Of a stretch of 64,000 nt of DNA, positions 22,759 to 31,091 are shown piece by piece. The stretch covers positions 3,017-67,016 of the forward strand of contig JAVYMA010000009.1 in the NCBI GenBank assembly GCA_038740345.1, in the 5' to 3' direction. Origin of the DNA: Methanomassiliicoccales archaeon (GTDB lineage Archaea > Thermoplasmatota > Thermoplasmata > Methanomassiliicoccales > UBA472). Under the pieces are notes generated by a model, which saw only the letters and a program-made list of their open reading frames with translations, had not been told where the DNA came from and did not search any database. The position numbers were made by a program, and so were the translations under genes. Each line of letters starts with the position of its first letter. Positions within the stretch are counted from its first letter, which is position 1.

Positions 22759-23799
22759 TTATGCTCCTCGGTACTTATCCTTAGGAACTCTAATCTCAAA
22801 CCTAGCGCCTTGGCCGTACTTTCCACTCTCTTTGATCGAGATCCCTGTGACGGAAAGTATCTCTCTCGCAAGGAACAACCCTCGGTCAGATTTAGGGGAA
22901 AGGCCTAGTTCAAAAATGCGCTCCTTCATGTCGGTAGGTATTCCTACACCATCGTCCTCGTATATGAGTAGCAGGTCTTCCTTGTCTTTCTCTGCTCTAA
23001 GGGAAACCCTTCTTACTCCATTTCCATGCTTCAGCGAATCATCTAGGAGATTATAGAATACCTTGACTAGCATGTGGTCAGCGAAGACCTCCACGCCATT
23101 AACTCGATTGACCATTTCCACATTCCCCAGCCCAAGCTTTAATGCGGCTTGTTCAAAGGCCGCCCTAACACTCTGCCATGAGGGCCCTCTGACTCCGATT
23201 TCCTCATAATCTCTGGTGAATTCCATGTCATTCTGTATAGATCTTAACATCTCAGACATCTTTTCCGCGTTCCTGCGACACTCCTCATCTGGGCATTTTC
23301 CTGCCTGCATACGCAAAGTTCCTTCTAAAACCATGAGCCGGTTGAGGATATCATGCCTGGTTATCTTGCTTAGGAGCCTAAGCTTGCGATTCGCCTGAAA
23401 TACGAACTCCTCCGCTCTTTTCCTCGCCTCGTTTTCTTTAGCTAGTTTCTCATTAACTTGTTTCAGGGCCGATTCATAGCGCAACCCTTCTTCTCGCAGA
23501 TATGCGACTATCAGAGGAATTATGATGAGGGGAAAAGCTCGAACCACATCATCAGTGAAAAGCCTGAGGTTCTGAGCTGCAAGGTCCGATGCCAGGAGAA
23601 CGATCACCAAAACGACCGCGACCAAAACCCCTTTTTTTCTCCACCAATAAGCTGCCAATATGGAAGGAATATAGAAAAAGTGGGTGAAAAGAGTGCCCTG
23701 TTCGAGGACCGTGTGGAAATACCAGGTTAGGAGAATAGCGGCTGCTATCAGGCCTGCTATTATGAATATTTTCTCTAAATCCTGGCTTTTTATTTTCAT
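22759..23799 (-). CDS. Membrane-bound sensor histidine kinase
   Basis: Four N-terminal TM helices are followed by a coiled coil, the H-box ITRHDILNRL, and an ATPase domain (LLDDSLKHG, YEDDGVGIP, GLFLAREI). No response regulator is adjacent. Confidence 0.8.
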   Translation of the reverse strand: MKIKSQDLEKIFIIAGLIAAAILLTWYFHTVLEQGTLFTHFFYIPSILAAYWWRKKGVLVAVVLVIVLLASDLAAQNLRLFTDDVVRAFPLIIIPLIVAYLREEGLRYESALKQVNEKLAKENEARKRAEEFVFQANRKLRLLSKITRHDILNRLMVLEGTLRMQAGKCPDEECRRNAEKMSEMLRSIQNDMEFTRDYEEIGVRGPSWQSVRAAFEQAALKLGLGNVEMVNRVNGVEVFADHMLVKVFYNLLDDSLKHGNGVRRVSLRAEKDKEDLLLIYEDDGVGIPTDMKERIFELGLSPKSDRGLFLAREILSVTGISIKESGKYGQGARFEIRVPKDKYRGA

Positions 23800-23864
23800 C
23801 CCCTCTAGCTATTTTATGTTGATTTATGAATGTTAAGCACTAATTTTCTAATATGATAAGCTGT

Positions 23865-24188
23865 CTAGCTCTGGTGCAAATGTTTGGCCAATACCTGCTC
23901 CAGTTTTTCAAGGGTAGGAACGCCACCGTATAGCTCGAGCTTTTGATTCACAAAGAGCGCTGGGGTCACTGCTTGTCCATACTTGTCGAAGAGCGGGATT
24001 ATATCTGACATGAAGCCATAGCGCCGCGACATCATGGCGTCCGTAGCATGAACCAGCTCGATATCAGCCTCGGCATGCAGTCTTTTTAGGGCCTCCTTTA
24101 TGCGCTCGAAATAGACTTTATCATGTGCGGCAAGCTTAGGGTTGCAGCAGGCGAATGAAAGCAAAGTGAGCCTCAACTTCTCAACCAT
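23865..24188 (-). CDS. ArsD-like thioredoxin-fold protein
   Basis: 107 aa. The N-terminal LLSFACCNPKL resembles the ArsD FDPAMCCSTGVCG motif but lacks the third Cys. The C-terminal TPALFVNQKLELYGGVPTLEKLEQVL fits a thioredoxin-fold tail. It overlaps the upstream ATPase gene by 8 nt. Confidence 0.45.
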   Translation of the reverse strand: MVEKLRLTLLSFACCNPKLAAHDKVYFERIKEALKRLHAEADIELVHATDAMMSRRYGFMSDIIPLFDKYGQAVTPALFVNQKLELYGGVPTLEKLEQVLAKHLHQS

Positions 24189-25113
24189 ACAGATGCCTCC
24201 CCACTTTTCTAAGATTTTCCACGCCGTATACGTCAGTCTCCATCATAGGCACATAGGTCTTGATCAGATTAGGGAAACGTCTGTCGATCTCCTCTAAATG
24301 CTTTTTTTGCGTCTCTCTCCTCTTCTCCAGAAACCAATTGCCCTGCAGGACTTCCAGAGGTATCACCTGATTCACAATAAGAGAGGGTACCATTATACCG
24401 AAGCTCTTCAGGTCATCAATGGCGCGGGATGTCTCTTCAATAGATAACTTTTCAGGTAAGGTGACGAGAGTAAAGGCGGAGACAGCTGCATCTGCCAAGC
24501 CCTTTACCGCCTTATCATATCTTTCCTTTTCCATGCTTAAATCTTGGATCATGTCCTCGTCATAAACGAATCCCAGGACCTCGGAGAGCTCCTTTCTGTT
24601 CCTTATTTGATTCGCTATATAACTAGACCAGTCGAAGGGCATGCTCAATTCTCGAAGAGTATGGCCGGTAGGGGCAGTGTCGAATACGAGCTTATCATGC
24701 TCGGTGTCCTGCATAAATGAAACGAACTGATCAAATGCTGCTATCTCTTCCGTGCAGGGTGTAGAGAGCAGCTCGCTGCCGAAAAGCGTGGAAAAACCCT
24801 CTAACATTCCAGTCATGCGGCTTTGGAACAGACCCATGGCCTTCTTGGGGTTGATATTCAATCCGCTCAAGCGGCAGGAGCAGTTAATGGGAGTGACCTC
24901 GGTCTCACTGATCCTCTGCTCGAAGGTGGCGGACAAGGAGACAGTTGGATCGGTAGCGATTATTAGCGTCTTATAGCCATTATCAGCCAACCAAAGGGCG
25001 GTTGCGGCGGCCATCGTCGTCTTTCCAACACCGCCCTTTCCGCCAAAGAATAAGAACCTTTTCTCTTTAACTAGGTCTATCATTTCTTTATACTCAGTCA
25101 TTGTACTCCTCAC
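24181..25113 (-). CDS. ArsA/Get3-family P-loop ATPase (single-domain)
   Basis: Carries the deviant Walker A FFGGKGGVGKTT and the family signature DTAPTGHTLREL. Length is 310 aa. Confidence 0.8.
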   Translation of the reverse strand: MRSTMTEYKEMIDLVKEKRFLFFGGKGGVGKTTMAAATALWLADNGYKTLIIATDPTVSLSATFEQRISETEVTPINCSCRLSGLNINPKKAMGLFQSRMTGMLEGFSTLFGSELLSTPCTEEIAAFDQFVSFMQDTEHDKLVFDTAPTGHTLRELSMPFDWSSYIANQIRNRKELSEVLGFVYDEDMIQDLSMEKERYDKAVKGLADAAVSAFTLVTLPEKLSIEETSRAIDDLKSFGIMVPSLIVNQVIPLEVLQGNWFLEKRRETQKKHLEEIDRRFPNLIKTYVPMMETDVYGVENLRKVGRHLYG

Positions 25114-25288
25114 ATCACACTCGTAATACCATAATGATTCTTACGATTACATTGGTCAAAGCGAATCAATGTTCTCTGATAGGTTGAAAGGGGCTTCGTC
25201 GTGACACCATCTTTCAATATTTGTTAATGCTTTGGATGCCTATGTCAAAGGGTTAAATTGTGAAGCGAGAGCTTTATGGCTCGACGCT

Positions 25289-25828
25289 TCAGAATGCGCG
25301 GAAGGCAGAACTCTTAGCCCCACAAACTGGACATACGTCTGGAGCTTCGCCCTCTACTGTCCAACCGCAAGTGGAGCATATTTGCACTTTTGCATCTCGC
25401 CAGTCCTTTCCCTGATCAACGAGCTCCTTTGCCTCTTCATACATTTTTTTGTGTACCTTTTCAGCTTTATAAGCCCACTCGAAAGAAGTATAAGCTATCT
25501 TCTCTCCTTGCAATTTCGCGGTCTCCATATAGACGGGGTACATCTCCTCCACCTCGAACTTCTCCCCTTCCACCGCTACAGCTAGGTTCTCGGCGGTTTT
25601 TCCCACTCCAAAAGGAGCTTCCGCTGCAACCGCTCCCATCTTCCGAGGCGAGCGTCTCATATGCCCGCTAGCATGAATCTCTTCCGCAAAGGCCACCGCA
25701 CGAAACAGTCGAGCTACGTTTTTGAATCCTTCCTTTTCTGCAGCATCAGCATATATCAAATATCTCATGTGAGCCATCGATTCCCCTGCATAGGCATTGT
25801 GCATGAATTGTTCCGTCATGGCGTGCAT
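25289..25828 (-). CDS. rbr: Rubrerythrin
   Basis: The diiron four-helix region (AYAGESMAHMRYLIYA...AEEIHA...EGEKFEVEEMYP) is followed by a C-terminal rubredoxin-like CSTCGW...CPVCGA. Confidence 0.9.
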   Translation of the reverse strand: MHAMTEQFMHNAYAGESMAHMRYLIYADAAEKEGFKNVARLFRAVAFAEEIHASGHMRRSPRKMGAVAAEAPFGVGKTAENLAVAVEGEKFEVEEMYPVYMETAKLQGEKIAYTSFEWAYKAEKVHKKMYEEAKELVDQGKDWRDAKVQICSTCGWTVEGEAPDVCPVCGAKSSAFRAF

Positions 25829-26268
25829 CTCGCAACCTCCAGTCTTCTTCCCCTCACTTAATGAACGAATATATAGAGCTTGTTTAATGAGTTTTGAAAT
25901 CCAGGAAATAAATTTCTTTTCAGAATTCCTTTATTATTTTATTGTTTCATTATTATATAATTTAACGGGCAGGAAAATCACAGCGAAACCTATTATTGAC
26001 TTCTGCCGTCAAAGCCCCTCACAAACAGATGTGGTTTTATTCATGATATGTCTGTCATCACAATTCACCACAATTTTCCATATTGATATAAGGATAATAT
26101 TAAACAGAAAGGGCAATTAAAAGGTATACAAAAAATATGAGCAATTATGCCAAGGTGATCTGAGAGAAGCCAATTTCACTCTAACTCTAACTCTATTGCT
26201 TCGAATGTAAAATTCTTGACTACGGTTATCTATCAGCGCTGTAAGCTCTATAAAACATCTCCATGAAT

Positions 26269-26288
26269 CGTTGACAAAAATGTCAACG
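26269..26288. promoter_or_regulatory. Perfect palindrome CGTTGACA-AAAA-TGTCAACG, candidate operator
   Basis: The 8-N4-8 inverted repeat was read directly. It lies about 15 nt upstream of a TATA-like GCTTTATCTTTT (26302-26313) and about 50 nt upstream of the beta-propeller ATG (26339). Confidence 0.4.
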
Positions 26289-26329
26289 CTGACGGAACTT
26301 TGCTTTATCTTTTCAAAAATAAATGTTAG

Positions 26330-28252
26330 TTGAAGAAGATGAAGCGAAGAATTACCATCACGGTTTCGGTTTTGATTGCGCTAGGACTAAGTCTAGCTGG
26401 CATCGTAACCTTGATCGGCGAGGAAGCGCAATCATCCATCAGTGAAACCTTCCCGGCCTTCAAGGATGTAGAAGATCTGAAGCGATATCTTCGCAGCTTT
26501 CAAAGGGAATGGACTGCATGGACATTAATGGCATCTGGAACCGCTGAGGATGCAGGAGGAGCGATAACTCATCATTCCCAAACGAATATCCAAGTGCAAG
26601 GAGTCGATGAGGCCGATATGGTCAAGACAGATGGCAAATATCTTTACATAGCTCAAGTTGACGCCATATCCATCGTCAAGGCTTATCCTCTTGATCAACT
26701 ATCAAATCATTCCTACATTGATATAAAAGAGATCTTGCACTTAGGGTCGAATGAATCCGCCCTCATTAACGGTATATTTCTGATGAGGGGCAGATTGGTG
26801 GCGGTGGTTTCCATCGTCACCTATCACCACCATCCACATGATTATAATTTGTTCTGGAGAGAAGAATCGAGCTCAGAAGGGGAATCACCATTAAGGGACA
26901 TGCCACAGGTTACATGTTATTGTAGTGGGATGGAGGAGCATTGTCTAGTGCTCTCTTTCTTCCTGCTCGACGGAATTCCTAATTTCTTGGGCTTCAAGGG
27001 AACATCTGGCCATTATGTGACCTCTAGAATGGTGGATGAAGTATTGTATTTGGTTACCCAACAATACGTATGGAGTGATACGAAGAATGTATCGATTCCT
27101 TGTTTATTCGAAAAGAACTCTGCCTCAGCCCTTGAGGCTAGCACGATTCGATATGATCCGGAGTGTAATGATCCCTATTCCTTCTTGAACGTATTGGCAG
27201 TTGATGTGATTAGTCTCGAGCACAGCCTAGAAAGCATATTAACTAGCTATTCCTCCCTTATCTACGTCTCCCCTAACTCATTATATCTCACTTTCCAGAA
27301 ATGGAAGGAGAAATACGCGAGTACAATCAACATTTTTCCTTTAAGAAGTGGGAATCAGCCAATAGCATCCATCAACGATCCTTCTTTCACATCGATTTAT
27401 AAGTTCAGTTTGCAAGGACTTAATGTTAAGTTCCAAGCGCGCGGGGATGTGCCGGGGCACCCGCTGAATCAGTTTTCTTTGGACGAGAGCAGGGGAATGC
27501 TCCGCGTGGCCACCACCCTGAGCTGGAGCAATCAGATGAGCAATGTGTACGTGCTTGATACCAATCTCAATGTTATTGGAAAGCTAGAAGGCTTAGCTCC
27601 TGAAGAGCGTATCTACGCTTGCCGCTACATCTGCAACACTCTTTACCTGGTGACCTTTAGGCAAATCGACCCGCTATGCGTAATTGATCTCACCGACCCC
27701 ATTCATCCCATACTCAAAGGAGAGCTCAAGGTGCCTGGTTTCTCATCTTACCTGCATCCTTTGGATTATGGCCGCCTTGCAGGATTAGGAATGGAGAACG
27801 GCTCCGTGAAGATTTCTCTGTTCGACGTCTCCAATCCTGAGCATCCTGAAGAGATCGATTCATTTCTGGTGGGAACATGGTCTTATTCAGAGGCGCTATG
27901 GGAACATAAGTTTGTTATCTACGATCCTAACTCAAAATTTCTTATGATTCCGATTAGCTTTTATTGTGAAGAAAGAGGGAAAATGCTCAATGAATTATGC
28001 ATCTTTGACTTCAGCCATGAAAATATAAAGCTTAAAGGAGCGATTTTACCTGAATCTGGAGAGCTCATCTTACGAGCTCAATTCATTGAGGACCATATTT
28101 ATGCCATAACTGATAGGGCTATTTACGTCCACTCCATGGAGGACCTTGCCTTAGAAGCCATGCTCATCTATCGTGAGCGAGTACAAGGAGGCCTGTCATG
28201 GCACGCATTCGAAATCGTGGCAGGAGGGTATCAGGGAAGCGATGATCGGTGA
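26330..28252 (+). CDS. Secreted beta-propeller domain protein (COG4880/Beta_propel-like)
   Basis: Starts with an N-terminal signal or anchor (ITITVSVLIALGLSLAGIV). The block TNIQVQGVDEADMVKTDGKYLYIAQ and the later LCVIDLTDP.HP...G.LKVPGFSSYLHP are typical of this family. TTG at 26330, ATG at 26339. Confidence 0.7.
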   Translation: MKKMKRRITITVSVLIALGLSLAGIVTLIGEEAQSSISETFPAFKDVEDLKRYLRSFQREWTAWTLMASGTAEDAGGAITHHSQTNIQVQGVDEADMVKTDGKYLYIAQVDAISIVKAYPLDQLSNHSYIDIKEILHLGSNESALINGIFLMRGRLVAVVSIVTYHHHPHDYNLFWREESSSEGESPLRDMPQVTCYCSGMEEHCLVLSFFLLDGIPNFLGFKGTSGHYVTSRMVDEVLYLVTQQYVWSDTKNVSIPCLFEKNSASALEASTIRYDPECNDPYSFLNVLAVDVISLEHSLESILTSYSSLIYVSPNSLYLTFQKWKEKYASTINIFPLRSGNQPIASINDPSFTSIYKFSLQGLNVKFQARGDVPGHPLNQFSLDESRGMLRVATTLSWSNQMSNVYVLDTNLNVIGKLEGLAPEERIYACRYICNTLYLVTFRQIDPLCVIDLTDPIHPILKGELKVPGFSSYLHPLDYGRLAGLGMENGSVKISLFDVSNPEHPEEIDSFLVGTWSYSEALWEHKFVIYDPNSKFLMIPISFYCEERGKMLNELCIFDFSHENIKLKGAILPESGELILRAQFIEDHIYAITDRAIYVHSMEDLALEAMLIYRERVQGGLSWHAFEIVAGGYQGSDDR

Positions 28253-28295
28253 AGGACAAGAAAAGAGGTTAAGCACAACCTATGCGCTTAACGAC

Positions 28296-28877
28296 ATGGG
28301 ACCGAAGATGAAGGTGGAATTGGACAAAAGGGCGCTTTTCGCTTTGGCTTCCGATAGTCGCATGGAGATACTGAAGGCGCTCCACCTCCAAAGGCGTACG
28401 CTCGCCCAGTTAGCCGAACATTTAGGCATAGACAAAGCGGCGGTGCACCGACACCTTAAGAAGCTGGAAGAAGGAGGTCTCGTTGTTCGTTATGAGGATC
28501 ACGGATTTGTCTATTATGGGTTGTCCTGGAAGGCTAGGGATGTGATATCCCCAGGGGAGAACACCAAAATAGTCATAATTTTCGGACTTTCTTTGCTTCT
28601 GGTCTGCTTCGCTGCCTTCTCGATTCTAATCGGGTCGGAAGGTTTCGGTCTTCAGGCAGGAGCCGATTACCTGACGCCTGAAACGCAGGCAGGTGGGGTT
28701 GATTCTCCACAAACTCCTTCTCAAATCACAATGGCATATGTGCTTGCAGGAGCATTTTCGATGGCGTTGAGTATCGTAATGATATATGCCGGCTTTAGGA
28801 AAATACTCAGACCTAAACAGAAATTTATATCGACAGGCGAAACCTCCCGACCGCCTACCGAACCCTTGTTTGATTAA
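28296..28877 (+). CDS. ArsR-family winged-helix regulator fused to two transmembrane helices
   Basis: The wHTH is FALASDSRMEILKALHLQRRTLAQLAEHLGIDKAAVHRHLKKLEEGGLV. It is followed by TM1 (IVIIFGLSLLLVCFAAFSILIG), a short Pro/Gln-rich loop, and TM2 (MAYVLAGAFSMALSIVMIYAGF). The start is placed at ATG 28296, after the upstream stop. Confidence 0.7.
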   Translation: MGPKMKVELDKRALFALASDSRMEILKALHLQRRTLAQLAEHLGIDKAAVHRHLKKLEEGGLVVRYEDHGFVYYGLSWKARDVISPGENTKIVIIFGLSLLLVCFAAFSILIGSEGFGLQAGADYLTPETQAGGVDSPQTPSQITMAYVLAGAFSMALSIVMIYAGFRKILRPKQKFISTGETSRPPTEPLFD

Positions 28878-28930
28878 CATTATAATATATTAATATATTT
28901 AATCAAACATAATGAATAGATGGTGCCGGG

Positions 28931-29686
28931 TTGAAGTGGCGCAACCATTTTGAGATAGCCATGGCCATCGCCGAAGAACTTCAGTTGCCTCCTAGGCTGA
29001 AAAATATCCTCAAATTAGCAATCATCCAGCCCGATAGAGAAGCGGAAAAGGTGCTCCGACTGAATATCAATTTTCTGCCTCATCGGAAGAGAGTCCGCCA
29101 CCATCGTCCTAGCAGGAGATTCTTGCGTCATCTGATCTGGAAAGCTAGGGAAGCCTTCCTCCAGGGGAGGGAAGAGGATGCCGTTTGGTGTTTAGGTCGT
29201 GCTCTTCACTATATTCATGATGGGAGCGTGGCCGCCGGTCCACTTTATGTGTTCCATCATCGCAGGGAAAAAGCTTTGGAAAAGAGGAGAGTGGATTTTC
29301 GCGCAGTAAGGATTGGGGCTGAACGCTCTCTGCCATCCCCTTTGTTCGTGGACATGTGCTTGCGTTTGATGAAGCCGAGGAGAGACCCCAAGGCATCGAT
29401 GTATCAGGCCTGCATGCTCTCCTCTGCGATATCGCACGCAGTCCTGGCTTGGCCATGCCCTCAACTTGGCTTGAGGTATGAGCTCAAGCAGGCGGAGAAA
29501 CGTCATAAGAAACTCATTCTTCCGCTCGCCTATGTGAGTTCATTTACCTCCTCTTTTTGCCTATTGATACTTGGCCAAGTACAGCTCTTACCTCTAACAG
29601 CTTTGTTAGCCCTGGGTATTTTGCGTCTCGACTCATCGTATTATTTTTACCAGAGGGAAGCGCAATGGTTCCAATTCGAACGTTAG
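28931..29686 (+). CDS. Hypothetical protein: helical His/Asp-rich N-domain (phospholipase C/P1-nuclease-like?) plus C-terminal TM helices
   Basis: 251 aa with a TTG start. GRALHYIHDGSVA resembles the LHY..D metal-site helix of the Zn-dependent PLC family, but weakly. The C-terminal hydrophobic stretch is LILPLAYVSSFTSSFCLLILGQVQLLPLTALLALGIL. Confidence 0.35.
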   Translation: MKWRNHFEIAMAIAEELQLPPRLKNILKLAIIQPDREAEKVLRLNINFLPHRKRVRHHRPSRRFLRHLIWKAREAFLQGREEDAVWCLGRALHYIHDGSVAAGPLYVFHHRREKALEKRRVDFRAVRIGAERSLPSPLFVDMCLRLMKPRRDPKASMYQACMLSSAISHAVLAWPCPQLGLRYELKQAEKRHKKLILPLAYVSSFTSSFCLLILGQVQLLPLTALLALGILRLDSSYYFYQREAQWFQFER

Positions 29687-29729
29687 AATGGGAGAACTTT
29701 TTAAGTTATATCGTTCTTAATTGTTTCAT

Positions 29730-31091
29730 ATGACCTCCGTCTCGGTGACATCAAGGGCGAGAGGTTTAGCAAAAGGATTGGAAAAAGGTAGATGCATCCT
29801 ACACTGGATGAGCAGGGATCAAAGGGTCTCAGATAACCCCTCTTTACTATTCGCAATTCTAAAGGGAAACGAACTCCGCCTACCCGTCATCTCCTGCTTC
29901 TGCCTCGTTCCCAATTACTTGGAGGCGACTATAAGACAATACAGCTTCATGTTAAAAGGGCTGCGCGAGGTAGAATCCAGCCTGTTAAAGCTGGGTGTGG
30001 GGTTCCGCTTATTGACAGGGAATCCAGGAGAGGAGCTGTCAATCCTGATTAAAGAAGAGGACGCTGCGGCCCTCATATGCGATTTTGATCCTCTAAGACC
30101 AAAACAGTCCTGGAAAAAAGAGGTTCTGGGCTCCAGTGAGCTTTCCGTCTACGAGGTGGATGCGCATAATATCGTTCCATGCTGGATAGCATCATTCAAG
30201 AGGGAATACTCTGCAGGAACATTTCGCCCCAAACTCAAAAGCCAGCTATCTCAATATTTCCTAGAGCCCTTGCCGACCTTATCTCCATCGGTGCCCTGGA
30301 AGGAAAACGACATGACAGATTGGGAACGGGCTGAGCGCTCCTTAAAAGTCGGTCGAAGCGTTAAGCCAGTAAACTGGATAATACCTGGCGAAGAAGCCAG
30401 TCGAAAGGCGCTCCATTCCTTCATAGAAAAGGGGCTAATAGGCTATGCGCGGAGGCGAAATAATCCTGAGATTGATGGGCAATCGAACCTTTCACCCTAT
30501 CTCCATTTTGGACAACTTTCGCCGCACAGGGTGGCTTGGGAGGTGACGAAGTCGTCAGCACCTGAAGAGGACAAATCCGCCTTCCTAGAAGAGCTTATAG
30601 TTAGAAGAGAGCTGGCGGACAACTTCTGCTTCTATTGCCCAAACTACGACTCCGTTGACTGCTTCCCTGAATGGGCGAGGGCTTCGCTGGAGAAGCATAG
30701 GCTCGATCGGCGGGAATATTCCTATGATGAGAAGGATTTGGAGGCGGGAAATACTCATGACCCCTTGTGGAATGCGGCGCAGAGGGAGATGGTCGTTCGG
30801 GGTAAGATGCATGGCTATCTGCGCATGTATTGGGCCAAGAAACTCTTGGAATGGTGCTCCAGCCCTGAGGAGGCGATGAGAGTGGCCATCCGTCTCAACG
30901 ACCGTTATGAATTGGATGGACGCGATCCTAATGGCTATGCGGGTATAGCATGGTCCATAGGTGGGGTCCATGACAGGCCATGGCCCTCTCGCCCCATATT
31001 CGGGAAAATACGTTACATGAGCCTTACTGGGGCCAGGGCGAAGTTCGATGTGGATGCTTATATCCACAGGGTCGAATCGCTTTCATTATAG
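29730..31091 (+). CDS. phr: Deoxyribodipyrimidine photolyase, class II (CPD photolyase)
   Basis: Contains the class II hallmarks HWMSRDQRVSDNPSLLFA, IRQYSFMLKGL, DAHNIVPCW, NLSPYLHFGQLS, GKMHGYLRMYWAKKLLEW and NDRYELDGRDPNGYAGIAWSIGGVHDRPW. Confidence 0.9.
   Translation: MTSVSVTSRARGLAKGLEKGRCILHWMSRDQRVSDNPSLLFAILKGNELRLPVISCFCLVPNYLEATIRQYSFMLKGLREVESSLLKLGVGFRLLTGNPGEELSILIKEEDAAALICDFDPLRPKQSWKKEVLGSSELSVYEVDAHNIVPCWIASFKREYSAGTFRPKLKSQLSQYFLEPLPTLSPSVPWKENDMTDWERAERSLKVGRSVKPVNWIIPGEEASRKALHSFIEKGLIGYARRRNNPEIDGQSNLSPYLHFGQLSPHRVAWEVTKSSAPEEDKSAFLEELIVRRELADNFCFYCPNYDSVDCFPEWARASLEKHRLDRREYSYDEKDLEAGNTHDPLWNAAQREMVVRGKMHGYLRMYWAKKLLEWCSSPEEAMRVAIRLNDRYELDGRDPNGYAGIAWSIGGVHDRPWPSRPIFGKIRYMSLTGARAKFDVDAYIHRVESLSL

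Follow-up and report, generated by a model that had tools for sequence, protein, structure and literature searches.

A conserved two-gene cassette of Methanomassiliicoccales and related Thermoplasmata encoding a beta-propeller protein and a predicted membrane-tethered ArsR-type regulator behind a palindromic candidate operator

The ToxR/ToxS, TcpP/TcpH and VtrA/VtrC systems of bacteria consist of a transmembrane transcription regulator and a co-encoded periplasmic partner that stabilizes the regulator or senses for it. In the SdpR/SdpI system of Bacillus subtilis, a soluble ArsR-type autorepressor is sequestered by a multi-pass, signal-transducing membrane protein. The locus described in this manuscript is archaeal and bears a likeness to both. 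It lies in a stretch of 64,000 nucleotides from a Methanomassiliicoccales archaeon (GenBank assembly GCA_038740345.1, contig JAVYMA010000009.1, positions 3,017 to 67,016 of the forward strand), which is referred to as the window and whose numbering is used throughout. Three genes follow one another there on the + strand: a Beta_propel-family protein gene (gene 1), the gene of a predicted transmembrane transcription regulator (gene 2) and the gene of a helical membrane protein (gene 3). Genes 1 and 2 form a conserved cassette with a conserved palindrome in its promoter, which is the predicted binding site of the regulator.

The best comparison within the Archaea is offered by ArnR and ArnR1 of Sulfolobus acidocaldarius, which are membrane-bound one-component activators of the archaellum. 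ArnR boxes are inverted repeats, TCGAC-N5-GTCGA, located at -43 to -84, upstream of the TFB recognition element (BRE) and the TATA box (PMC6396743). Transmembrane transcription regulators (TTRs) were surveyed by Demey et al. 2023, who counted about four per archaeal genome and also reviewed the ToxR-like class (PMC10269533). ArnR was the sole characterized archaeal membrane-bound transcription regulator met in the literature examined, and how such regulators gain access to DNA and receive signals is largely unexplained. No description of the regulator family, its propeller partner or its operator was found in the literature. Searches on COG4880, PF09826, Beta_propel and IPR019198, also in combination with Methanomassiliicoccales or ArsR, returned nothing on the propeller family or the pairing, which agrees with the initial annotation of the window in stating that the pairing had no established function. 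A paper on hgcAB regulation in archaea proved to be unrelated.

The open reading frames (ORFs) of the three genes occupy 26330-28252 (640 amino acids), 28173-28877 and 28931-29686 (251 amino acids) on the + strand. They follow an AT-rich divergent intergenic region of 510 bp (25829-26338; 33% GC), which is bordered by a rubrerythrin gene on the - strand, confirmed by Pfam, and by the propeller gene on the + strand, and which holds the cassette promoter at its right end. The ORF reading and the Pfam searches upheld the initial annotation on the three ORFs, their domain assignments (a plausible one in the case of gene 3), the AT-rich gap and the palindrome at 26269-26288. That annotation had also proposed a three-gene envelope module and had called for a survey of gene neighborhoods, which was carried out here. 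One genome per species, for 185,579 species, was queried with signature peptides of the regulator, and 75 loci were returned. All of them were titled Thermoplasmata, Thermoplasmatota, Methanomassiliicoccales or with broader euryarchaeal names, and none was bacterial. The flanks of each locus were searched with the proteins of the window, and all flanking ORFs were clustered all-versus-all.

Among the 75 loci, only the propeller and the regulator proved to be conserved neighbors. The regulator was present in 75 of 75 and the propeller in 69 of 75, always immediately upstream and on the same strand, so the membrane-tethered DNA-binding domain beside an extracytoplasmic partner, to which the initial annotation had drawn attention, is a conserved pairing. 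The six loci without an adjacent propeller comprise three that are cut at a contig end and three propeller losses. The other large clusters in the flanks were artefacts of overlapping reading frames, and no further real family extended beyond about 21 loci. The distance between the propeller stop codon and the conserved regulator start has a median of 62 nt (range 4-118), and many gene calls overlap. In L026, L034 (6858-9715) and L036 the order is a 309-residue protein gene, the operator, the regulator, an ATP-binding cassette (ABC) ATPase and an ABC-2-type permease. The 309-residue protein gene also lies upstream of the propeller in L012, L020, L021 and L035. Thus, the propeller was lost from an ancestral arrangement in L026, L034 and L036, and the ABC transporter may have come under the control of the regulator there. 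The cassette consists of two genes, propeller and regulator, which have been kept across Methanomassiliicoccales and related Thermoplasmata. Its carriers include metagenome-assembled genomes of Methanomassiliicoccus sp. (L029, L037, L042, L072 and L075). We regard it as virtually certain that this two-gene cassette and its operator are real conserved features.

The palindrome is CGTTGAC-N6-GTCAACG (26269-26288), with the core GTTGAC-N6-GTCAAC at 26270-26287, and in the window it reads CGTTGACA-aaaa-TGTCAACG. With up to one mismatch allowed, the 64-kb window has this one match, against 0.02 expected by chance, and allowing two mismatches adds a single chance-level match inside the photolyase gene. 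When exact inverted repeats were sought in the 200 nt upstream of propeller genes, (C)GTTGAC-N6-GTCAAC(G) was recovered in locus after locus. The exact 12-base operator occurs in 48 of the 75 loci, once in each and 30-110 nt upstream of the first cassette gene, and no other exact copy was found elsewhere in these loci, which extend to at most about 14.6 kb each. Eleven of the 75 loci lack the operator, and all eleven are truncated upstream by a contig end. It is present in every one of the 64 loci whose upstream region is intact (48 exactly, 14 with one mismatch, mostly ATTGAC, and two with two mismatches), and the site that the initial annotation had singled out is, therefore, a conserved one. 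An exact search of the relatives for the 8-bp arms of the window (TGACA...TGTCA) found none, and the longer arms were rejected, the inner A/T belonging to the free spacer.

Several features of the site bear on what recognizes it. The sequence of the arms is conserved while that of the 6-nt spacer varies freely, and arm mismatches (e.g., ATTGAC) come without compensating changes; this pattern argues for a protein-binding DNA site rather than an RNA hairpin. In L026, L034 and L036 the operator and a TATA box stand directly before the regulator gene, and thus the operator travels with the regulator. In addition, the recognition helix of the regulator, DKAAxxRHLK, is invariant in the regulator alignment, and an invariant recognition helix paired with an invariant half-site is what would be expected of an autoregulator. 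On these grounds a dimer of the regulator very probably binds the operator.

The operator also stands at a fixed place relative to the promoter. In 51 of 57 loci, the right arm is followed at 9-12 nt by the start of an AT-rich octamer with the consensus T-W-x-ATATA (e.g., TTGATATA and TATAAATA), and GC-rich positions flank it when the promoters are aligned on the operator. The window counterpart, a TATA-box-like octamer assigned from the family spacing, is TTGCTTTA at 26300-26307 (+ strand), 12 nt after the right arm. From the end of the octamer to the start codon the median distance is 25 nt (interquartile range 23-30); it is 31 nt to ATG 26339 in the window and the same in the nearest relative, L007. 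Archaeal promoters have their TATA box centered near -26. Given this spacing, the transcripts are predicted to be leaderless or nearly so, with the operator at about -62 to -45. Archaeal regulators that bind upstream of BRE and TATA usually activate transcription. Since the operator lies upstream of these elements, as the ArnR boxes do, we lean toward activation, that is, positive autoregulation, by analogy.

The regulator gene spans 28242-28877 on the + strand and encodes a winged helix-turn-helix (wHTH) followed by two hydrophobic segments. Its start is either ATG 28242, the NCBI call of 211 residues (100% identical over the query), or ATG 28308, where the conserved core begins with MKVELDK. 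A start at ATG 28242 produces an 11-nt overlap with the end of the propeller gene. The initial annotation had considered it noteworthy that the regulator ORF remains open from 28173 through the propeller stop codon (28250-28252). As the two genes are in different frames, the open frame carries no meaning, and the overlap is ordinary operon packing with no fusion and no special significance.

The N-terminal part of the regulator matches HTH_20 (2.4e-13; 50.3 bits, cut-off 27) and HTH_5/ArsR (2e-11; 44 bits, cut-off 22) in Pfam, and a profile search of PDB sequences matched the ArsR-type wHTH proteins PH1932, HlyU and NolR. In NCBIfam the HTH_metalloreg model scored 45.9 bits, below its cut-off of 55, and the second-best match was the SdpR model (38.8 versus a cut-off of 100). 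The core (residues 1-86) is without cysteine, and on our reading of the sequence the first transmembrane segment (TM1) follows straight after the wing, so an alpha-5 helix is missing. The regulator has an ArsR-type fold by sequence and is not demonstrably a metalloregulator, the usual ArsR/SmtB metal sites being absent. The Pfam scan of the regulator gave no match to HAMP and no domain between the wing and TM1, and Trans_reg_C was absent among the 25 best of 44 Pfam matches.

Hydropathy places TM1 at 28566-28634 and TM2 at 28725-28796, with peak window-averaged values of 2.85 and 1.99. The wHTH, wing and juxtamembrane motif precede them (28308-28565), a Gly/Pro/Gln-rich outside loop of 30 residues lies between them (28635-28724), and a basic cytoplasmic tail of 26 residues beginning RKILRPKQK follows (28797-28874). 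Positive residues follow TM2, and in the predicted topology the wHTH must face the cytoplasm. The wHTH-TM1-TM2 architecture was kept in all 24 aligned homologues. Across 22 homologues, identity to the regulator of the window was 81% in the DNA-binding part, 32% in TM1, 17% in the loop and 16% in TM2. The outside loop of the core family is flexible and Gly/Ser-rich, with a length of 24-37 residues. The motif EDHGFVYYGLSWKARD..SPGENT, at the cytoplasmic entry to TM1, is invariant in the alignment.

The propeller gene encodes 637 residues (26339-28252, + strand) of a protein predicted to be extracytoplasmic and membrane-anchored, with the N-terminus inside and the C-terminus outside. The ORF is open from TTG 26330, and the start is most likely ATG 26339, in view of the alignment with the closest relative and the promoter spacing. 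Residues 82-606 match Pfam Beta_propel (PF09826) over its full profile (positions 1-495 of 495; E = 4.5e-114; 382.5 bits, cut-off 22.4), a family that corresponds to COG4880, "secreted protein with C-terminal beta-propeller domain." A hydrophobic helix covers residues 4-30 of the N-terminus (residues 2-25 in the AlphaFold2 (AF2) model), and a segment of this kind, of about 23 residues, was present in every propeller homologue examined; an uncleaved anchor fits the sequence and the model better than a cleaved signal peptide. The anchor or juxtamembrane helix reads LPxFxSYxxLxxFL. The AF2 model has a mean predicted local distance difference test score (pLDDT) of 80 and is all-beta after residue 95. 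A Foldseek search of the PDB with this model returned generic eukaryotic propellers alone (DDB1 and WD40 proteins), with template-modeling scores (TM-scores) of at most 0.33 and no functional lead, and a sequence search of the PDB gave no relevant match.

The propeller gene had been described as markedly AT-rich. The deviation is mild: its GC content is 45.0% against a window mean of 50.0%, which places it at the 6th percentile of equal-sized segments. Two of the hand counts of GC behind that description were correct (22/60 and 24/60), and the third should be 31/60 rather than 33/60. Horizontal transfer was considered as a cause of the AT-richness and was rejected, the deviation being small and the gene being syntenic in all relatives. 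The nearest non-identical homologue shares 49% identity for the propeller versus 88% for the regulator, and by this comparison the propeller evolves much faster than the regulator.

Some further observations on the propeller family were made. In the window protein, 26825-26938 (residues ~163-200) encode a His/Cys-rich loop, YHHHPHD ... CYC ... EEHC, that includes a 9-residue insertion. The loop is absent from the aligned homologues and is modeled with low confidence; it could be a lineage-specific metal site. The name "inhibitor of cysteine peptidase" is given automatically by the Joint Genome Institute (JGI) to many homologues. When the window propeller was searched against Pfam, Beta_propel was the sole match above the curated threshold and no peptidase-inhibitor family was matched, and the label looks like an annotation carry-over. 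Two bacterial Beta_propel homologues were seen in a plasmid collection, L077 3758-7819 (Pseudoalteromonas) and L076 3671-6399 (Acetoanaerobium). One is a lipoprotein adjoining a histidine kinase and an OmpR-type response regulator, and after the other comes a small ORF resembling a wHTH. These contexts are our own ORF readings at unannotated places and were too anecdotal to be used, although they hint that the family may be tied to envelope signaling more broadly.

The wider regulator family was examined with an exhaustive profile search, clustered at 50% identity, which gave 22 clusters at E <= 1e-30 (the core family) and 872 at E <= 1e-10. The distant relatives examined keep the wHTH-TM1-TM2 plan, and some carry about 450-700 extracellular residues between the membrane segments. 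For example, P0314, P0349, P0357 and P0398 have an extracellular region of this size after the first membrane segment, and three of them end in a second. By their sequences, the members of the superfamily look like one-component regulators that sense the outside. In the core family the ectodomain is reduced to the loop of 24-37 residues and a separate ectodomain protein is co-encoded, which suggests a sensor supplied in trans; this argument from the wider family is suggestive, not decisive. None of the contigs of four distant relatives carried a propeller, and in two of them the relative lies near PKD-domain surface proteins, so the propeller pairing cannot be generalized beyond the core family. 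Upstream of distant relatives, palindromes were noted at L082 4083-4100 (TGCCAA-N6-TTGGCA) and L079 542-569 (TTTTCGTTTGGTA-N2-TACCAAACAAAAA). The first shares the 6-N6-6 geometry of the cassette operator; these are single cases and may be due to chance.

A scan of metagenomes with the operator-plus-TATA pattern returned 80 loci, of which 27 carry the cassette, three carry truncated propeller N-termini and about 50 are unrelated, roughly the chance level. In L091 and L150, the operator and TATA box stand 33-34 nt upstream of genes for homologous proteins of 463-466 residues. Both are on the - strand (L091, operator/TATA 5050-5087 and gene 3625-5016; L150, operator/TATA 6480-6517 and gene ~5048-6478) and are candidates for a second target. 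When the two contigs are compared, the flanks and spacer have diverged, and the arms and the TATA box have stayed intact. A signal peptide and C-terminal membrane segments mark the 463-466-residue proteins, which matched no Pfam family. A NosD-like beta-helix surface protein was seen near the candidate gene. Judged from these sequences, the regulator may control further envelope genes in some lineages.

Our preferred explanation, which we consider probable, is a self-regulating two-gene operon with a membrane-tethered regulator and with the propeller as its extracytoplasmic partner. The beta-propeller would be held on the outer face of the membrane by its uncleaved N-terminal anchor, and a dimer of the regulator would bind the operator while inserted in the membrane. 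Bound in this way, the regulator would control transcription of both cassette genes from one promoter, the favored sign being activation and hence positive feedback. The propeller would most likely supply in trans the sensing surface that the regulator lacks, as ToxS, TcpH and VtrC do for ToxR, TcpP and VtrA; that it modulates the regulator is put tentatively at somewhat less than an even chance. The initial annotation had suggested a one-component trans-envelope signaling device. The conserved operator makes the one-component part of that idea a well-supported inference, and any passing of a signal from the propeller to the regulator is conjectural.

Several points weigh against this explanation. 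First, operator binding by the regulator, the direction of its effect and signaling by the propeller are steps that we infer. Secondly, the sign is argued from position alone, and a site near BRE could also block the binding of TFB (transcription factor B). Third, the outside loop and membrane segments of the regulator are poorly conserved (16-32% identity), and they present no conserved surface on which the propeller could dock. In addition, neither the PDB sequence search nor Foldseek drew any clue to a ligand from the propeller fold. Lastly, L026, L034 and L036 retain the regulator and the operator without an adjacent propeller, which means that the regulator can exist alone.

The strongest competing explanation treats the propeller as cargo only, with the regulator answering to the state of the membrane, to its own insertion or turnover, or to a cytoplasmic ligand at the juxtamembrane motifs. 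This reading is favored by the contrast between the short, unconserved outside loop and the cytoplasmic juxtamembrane motifs (SWKARD..SPGENT ahead of TM1, R..RPKQ behind TM2), which vary little or not at all. It also agrees with the propeller-less loci, where an ABC transporter is next to the regulator instead, with the two metagenome contigs in which the same operator and TATA box precede a different secreted multi-pass protein, and with the distant relatives that lie near PKD-domain surface proteins instead of propellers. However, the pairing of propeller and regulator is near-universal (69/75), and genes kept so closely together in one operon are usually partners in a physical or functional sense. 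The large ectodomains between the membrane segments of relatives, moreover, suggest that sensing of the outside is ancestral. We consider a cargo role unlikely, although it is the alternative to be taken most seriously.

A second competing explanation, which appears improbable, is that the regulator is stored in the membrane and is cut in the loop and/or TM1, which frees the wHTH, while the propeller shields or exposes the cleavage site. In this version the surface propeller would detect an envelope or extracellular cue, and the freed wHTH would activate its own operon and further GTTGAC-N6-GTCAAC targets. The predicted topology is suitable, with an N-terminal DNA-binding domain, two membrane helices and a flexible outside loop of 24-37 residues, and the invariant SPGENT lies right at the cytoplasmic entry to TM1. 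SREBP is likewise anchored by a hairpin whose luminal loop is short, and bacterial anti-sigma factors offer a further parallel for release. The JGI label on the propeller homologues would also point this way, and being automatic it deserves little weight. For Archaea we know of no demonstrated case in which a membrane-tethered transcription factor is activated by proteolysis. Against release, no protease gene is found among the conserved neighbors in the 75 loci, and the loop has no conserved residue that would define a cleavage site. The known membrane-bound regulators, including ArnR, act without release (PMC6396743, PMC10269533).

It is very improbable that the palindrome belongs to another factor or is structural, with the wHTH of gene 2 having no role at the promoter. 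Many archaeal regulators recognize palindromes, but this one tracks the regulator gene despite loss of the propeller, is present in one copy per locus with no further copies in the 75 loci, and has invariant half-sites that match the invariant recognition helix, while the uncompensated mismatches in its arms speak against an RNA structure. Least credible of all is a three-gene envelope module in which gene 3 acts jointly with the other two: all three do run side by side in one direction in the window and in five related loci (L001, L002, L003, L006 and L010), but gene 3 is present in just 16 of the 75 loci at a median of 1.8 kb from the regulator, has a photolyase gene immediately after it in half of those 16, has few homologues beside the other two, and is separated from the regulator by an AT-rich stretch and an inverted repeat, with no operator before it.

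Gene 3 (28931-29686, + strand), which encodes a 251-residue helical protein resembling zinc-dependent phospholipases C and P1 nucleases, is accordingly treated as a neighbor outside the cassette, on account of its variable position, its few homologues and the AT-rich stretch and inverted repeat before it. A collection of 5.8 billion proteins contained 15 homologues of gene 3, compared with 528 of the regulator and over 5,000 of the propeller, and those of gene 3 are all from Methanomassiliicoccales where an organism is named. Gene 3 adjoins the regulator only in the closest relatives, the five loci listed above, and elsewhere lies 1-6 kb away with other genes intervening. A window search at up to two mismatches found no operator before gene 3. 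A perfect 11-bp inverted repeat, TGTTTGATTAA / TTAATCAAACA (28867-28909), spans the regulator stop codon, with an AT-rich, TATA-like stretch inside it. It may be the end point or terminator of the cassette transcript, the promoter region of gene 3, or both.

The protein has a helical N-terminal domain with invariant His and Asp residues and a C-terminal transmembrane hairpin (residues 195-231). The invariant residues are W3, H6, D35, H57, H58, H93, D97, H109 and E113, which fit the zinc-ligand pattern of the superfamily. With its AF2 model (pLDDT 87), Foldseek placed zinc-dependent phospholipases C in the top 17 ranks of the PDB and a P1-type nuclease at rank 22; these matches are weak (E 0.018-1.0, TM-scores <=0.44). 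A PDB sequence search found nothing relevant, and the Pfam family Zn_dep_PLPC (PF00882) was matched at 13.2 bits, below its cut-off of 26.8 (E = 0.089). The assignment made in the initial annotation, a zinc-dependent phospholipase C-like protein, is therefore plausible in view of the Foldseek matches and the invariant residues and falls below threshold in Pfam, and membership in the zinc-dependent phospholipase C/P1 nuclease superfamily is no more than plausible. The photolyase gene directly downstream of gene 3 (29721-31091) has the same place in L001, L002, L010, L017, L043, L050 and L075. In these loci a membrane-anchored, phosphodiesterase-like protein is paired with a DNA photolyase.

On the other side of the cassette, 22759-25828 (- strand) encodes a membrane histidine-kinase-like protein (HATPase_c), a 107-residue thioredoxin-fold protein, an ArsA-type ATPase and rubrerythrin. 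About 12-13 related loci share the ArsA gene and the gene of the 107-residue protein in synteny with the cassette, and about 11 share rubrerythrin; no member of this block is family-wide. An Rfam search of the region returned no family match. A scan for sigma-70 promoters and intrinsic terminators, which is unsuited to archaea, gave counts no higher than chance. PADLOC matched neither the propeller nor gene 3 and matched the regulator by generic wHTH models alone (the HTH parts of Csa3/CasR), and the cassette is not an anti-phage defense system known to PADLOC. Elsewhere in the window, the tRNA genes at 8998-9094 (+) and 12498-12602 (-) are 97 and 105 nt long, far above the standard tRNA length, which suggests archaeal introns; the third tRNA gene, at 17477-17551, has the usual length.

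The cassette is of interest for several reasons. First, it is a simple case of a membrane-bound archaeal regulator, in which two genes share one promoter, a single sharp operator keeps a fixed spacing to the TATA box and a cytoplasmic sensor domain is absent. Secondly, it is conserved across Methanomassiliicoccales, the order that holds gut methanogens. Third, the predicted operator permits direct work on DNA binding and in vitro transcription, as well as computation of the regulon in complete genomes. In addition, the cassette provides the first functional handle on the large, uncharacterized Beta_propel (PF09826/COG4880) family. If the propeller is the sensor, the cassette would be an archaeal equivalent of the ToxR/ToxS-type split receptor. 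The cassette is unsurprising in kind, and it is unusually clean and directly testable.

By its predicted sequence features, a DNA-binding domain and at least one membrane segment in one polypeptide, the regulator is a TTR. The main text of the TTR census makes no mention of HTH_20, ArsR or Thermoplasmata, and the family, the propeller partner and the operator are undescribed there (PMC10269533). With the ArsR/SmtB family the regulator shares the DNA-binding fold and its signature, and the family resemblance extends to the expected binding of palindromes as dimers and to autoregulation, which is common among ArsR/SmtB proteins. However, ArsR/SmtB proteins are soluble, metal-sensing repressors, whereas the regulator has a membrane hairpin in place of the C-terminal dimerization helix. 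SdpR is similar in that an ArsR-type wHTH autoregulates its own two-gene operon, as is proposed for the cassette, with its activity tied to the membrane. In that case the regulator is captured by a separate membrane protein, while in the cassette the anchor is fused to the regulator.

The ToxR/ToxS-type systems resemble the cassette in that a membrane-resident regulator shares its operon with a beta-rich protein that has a single anchor and lies on the outer side. They differ in the regulator, which has an OmpR-type wHTH, a single transmembrane segment and a folded periplasmic domain, where the cassette has an ArsR-type wHTH, a two-segment hairpin and a flexible loop. The cassette partner is also much larger than those of the ToxS type (the propeller exceeds 500 residues), the gene order is reversed and the systems belong to different domains of life. 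A sequence relationship between the two kinds of regulator was neither expected nor found.

ArnR is likewise archaeal, has an N-terminal HTH and a two-segment membrane anchor, and acts from the membrane. Its inverted-repeat sites lie upstream of BRE and TATA, as does the cassette site (predicted at about -62 to -45), which is a similarity of layout and not evidence of homology. ArnR has a HAMP-like domain and a cytoplasmic sensing domain between the HTH and the membrane segments, whereas in the cassette regulator very few residues separate the wing from TM1. The membrane segments of ArnR are C-terminal, and those of the cassette regulator are followed by the tail of 26 residues. The target of ArnR is another operon (flaB), and the cassette site is in the regulator's own promoter. 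ArnR is without a co-encoded ectodomain partner, while the cassette has the propeller. The lineages differ as well, Thermoproteota for ArnR and Thermoplasmatota for the cassette; the comparison was made with ArnR as described. Thus, the regulator is closest to ArnR in layout and to ToxR/ToxS, TcpP/TcpH and VtrA/VtrC in operon logic, and it is a member of neither.

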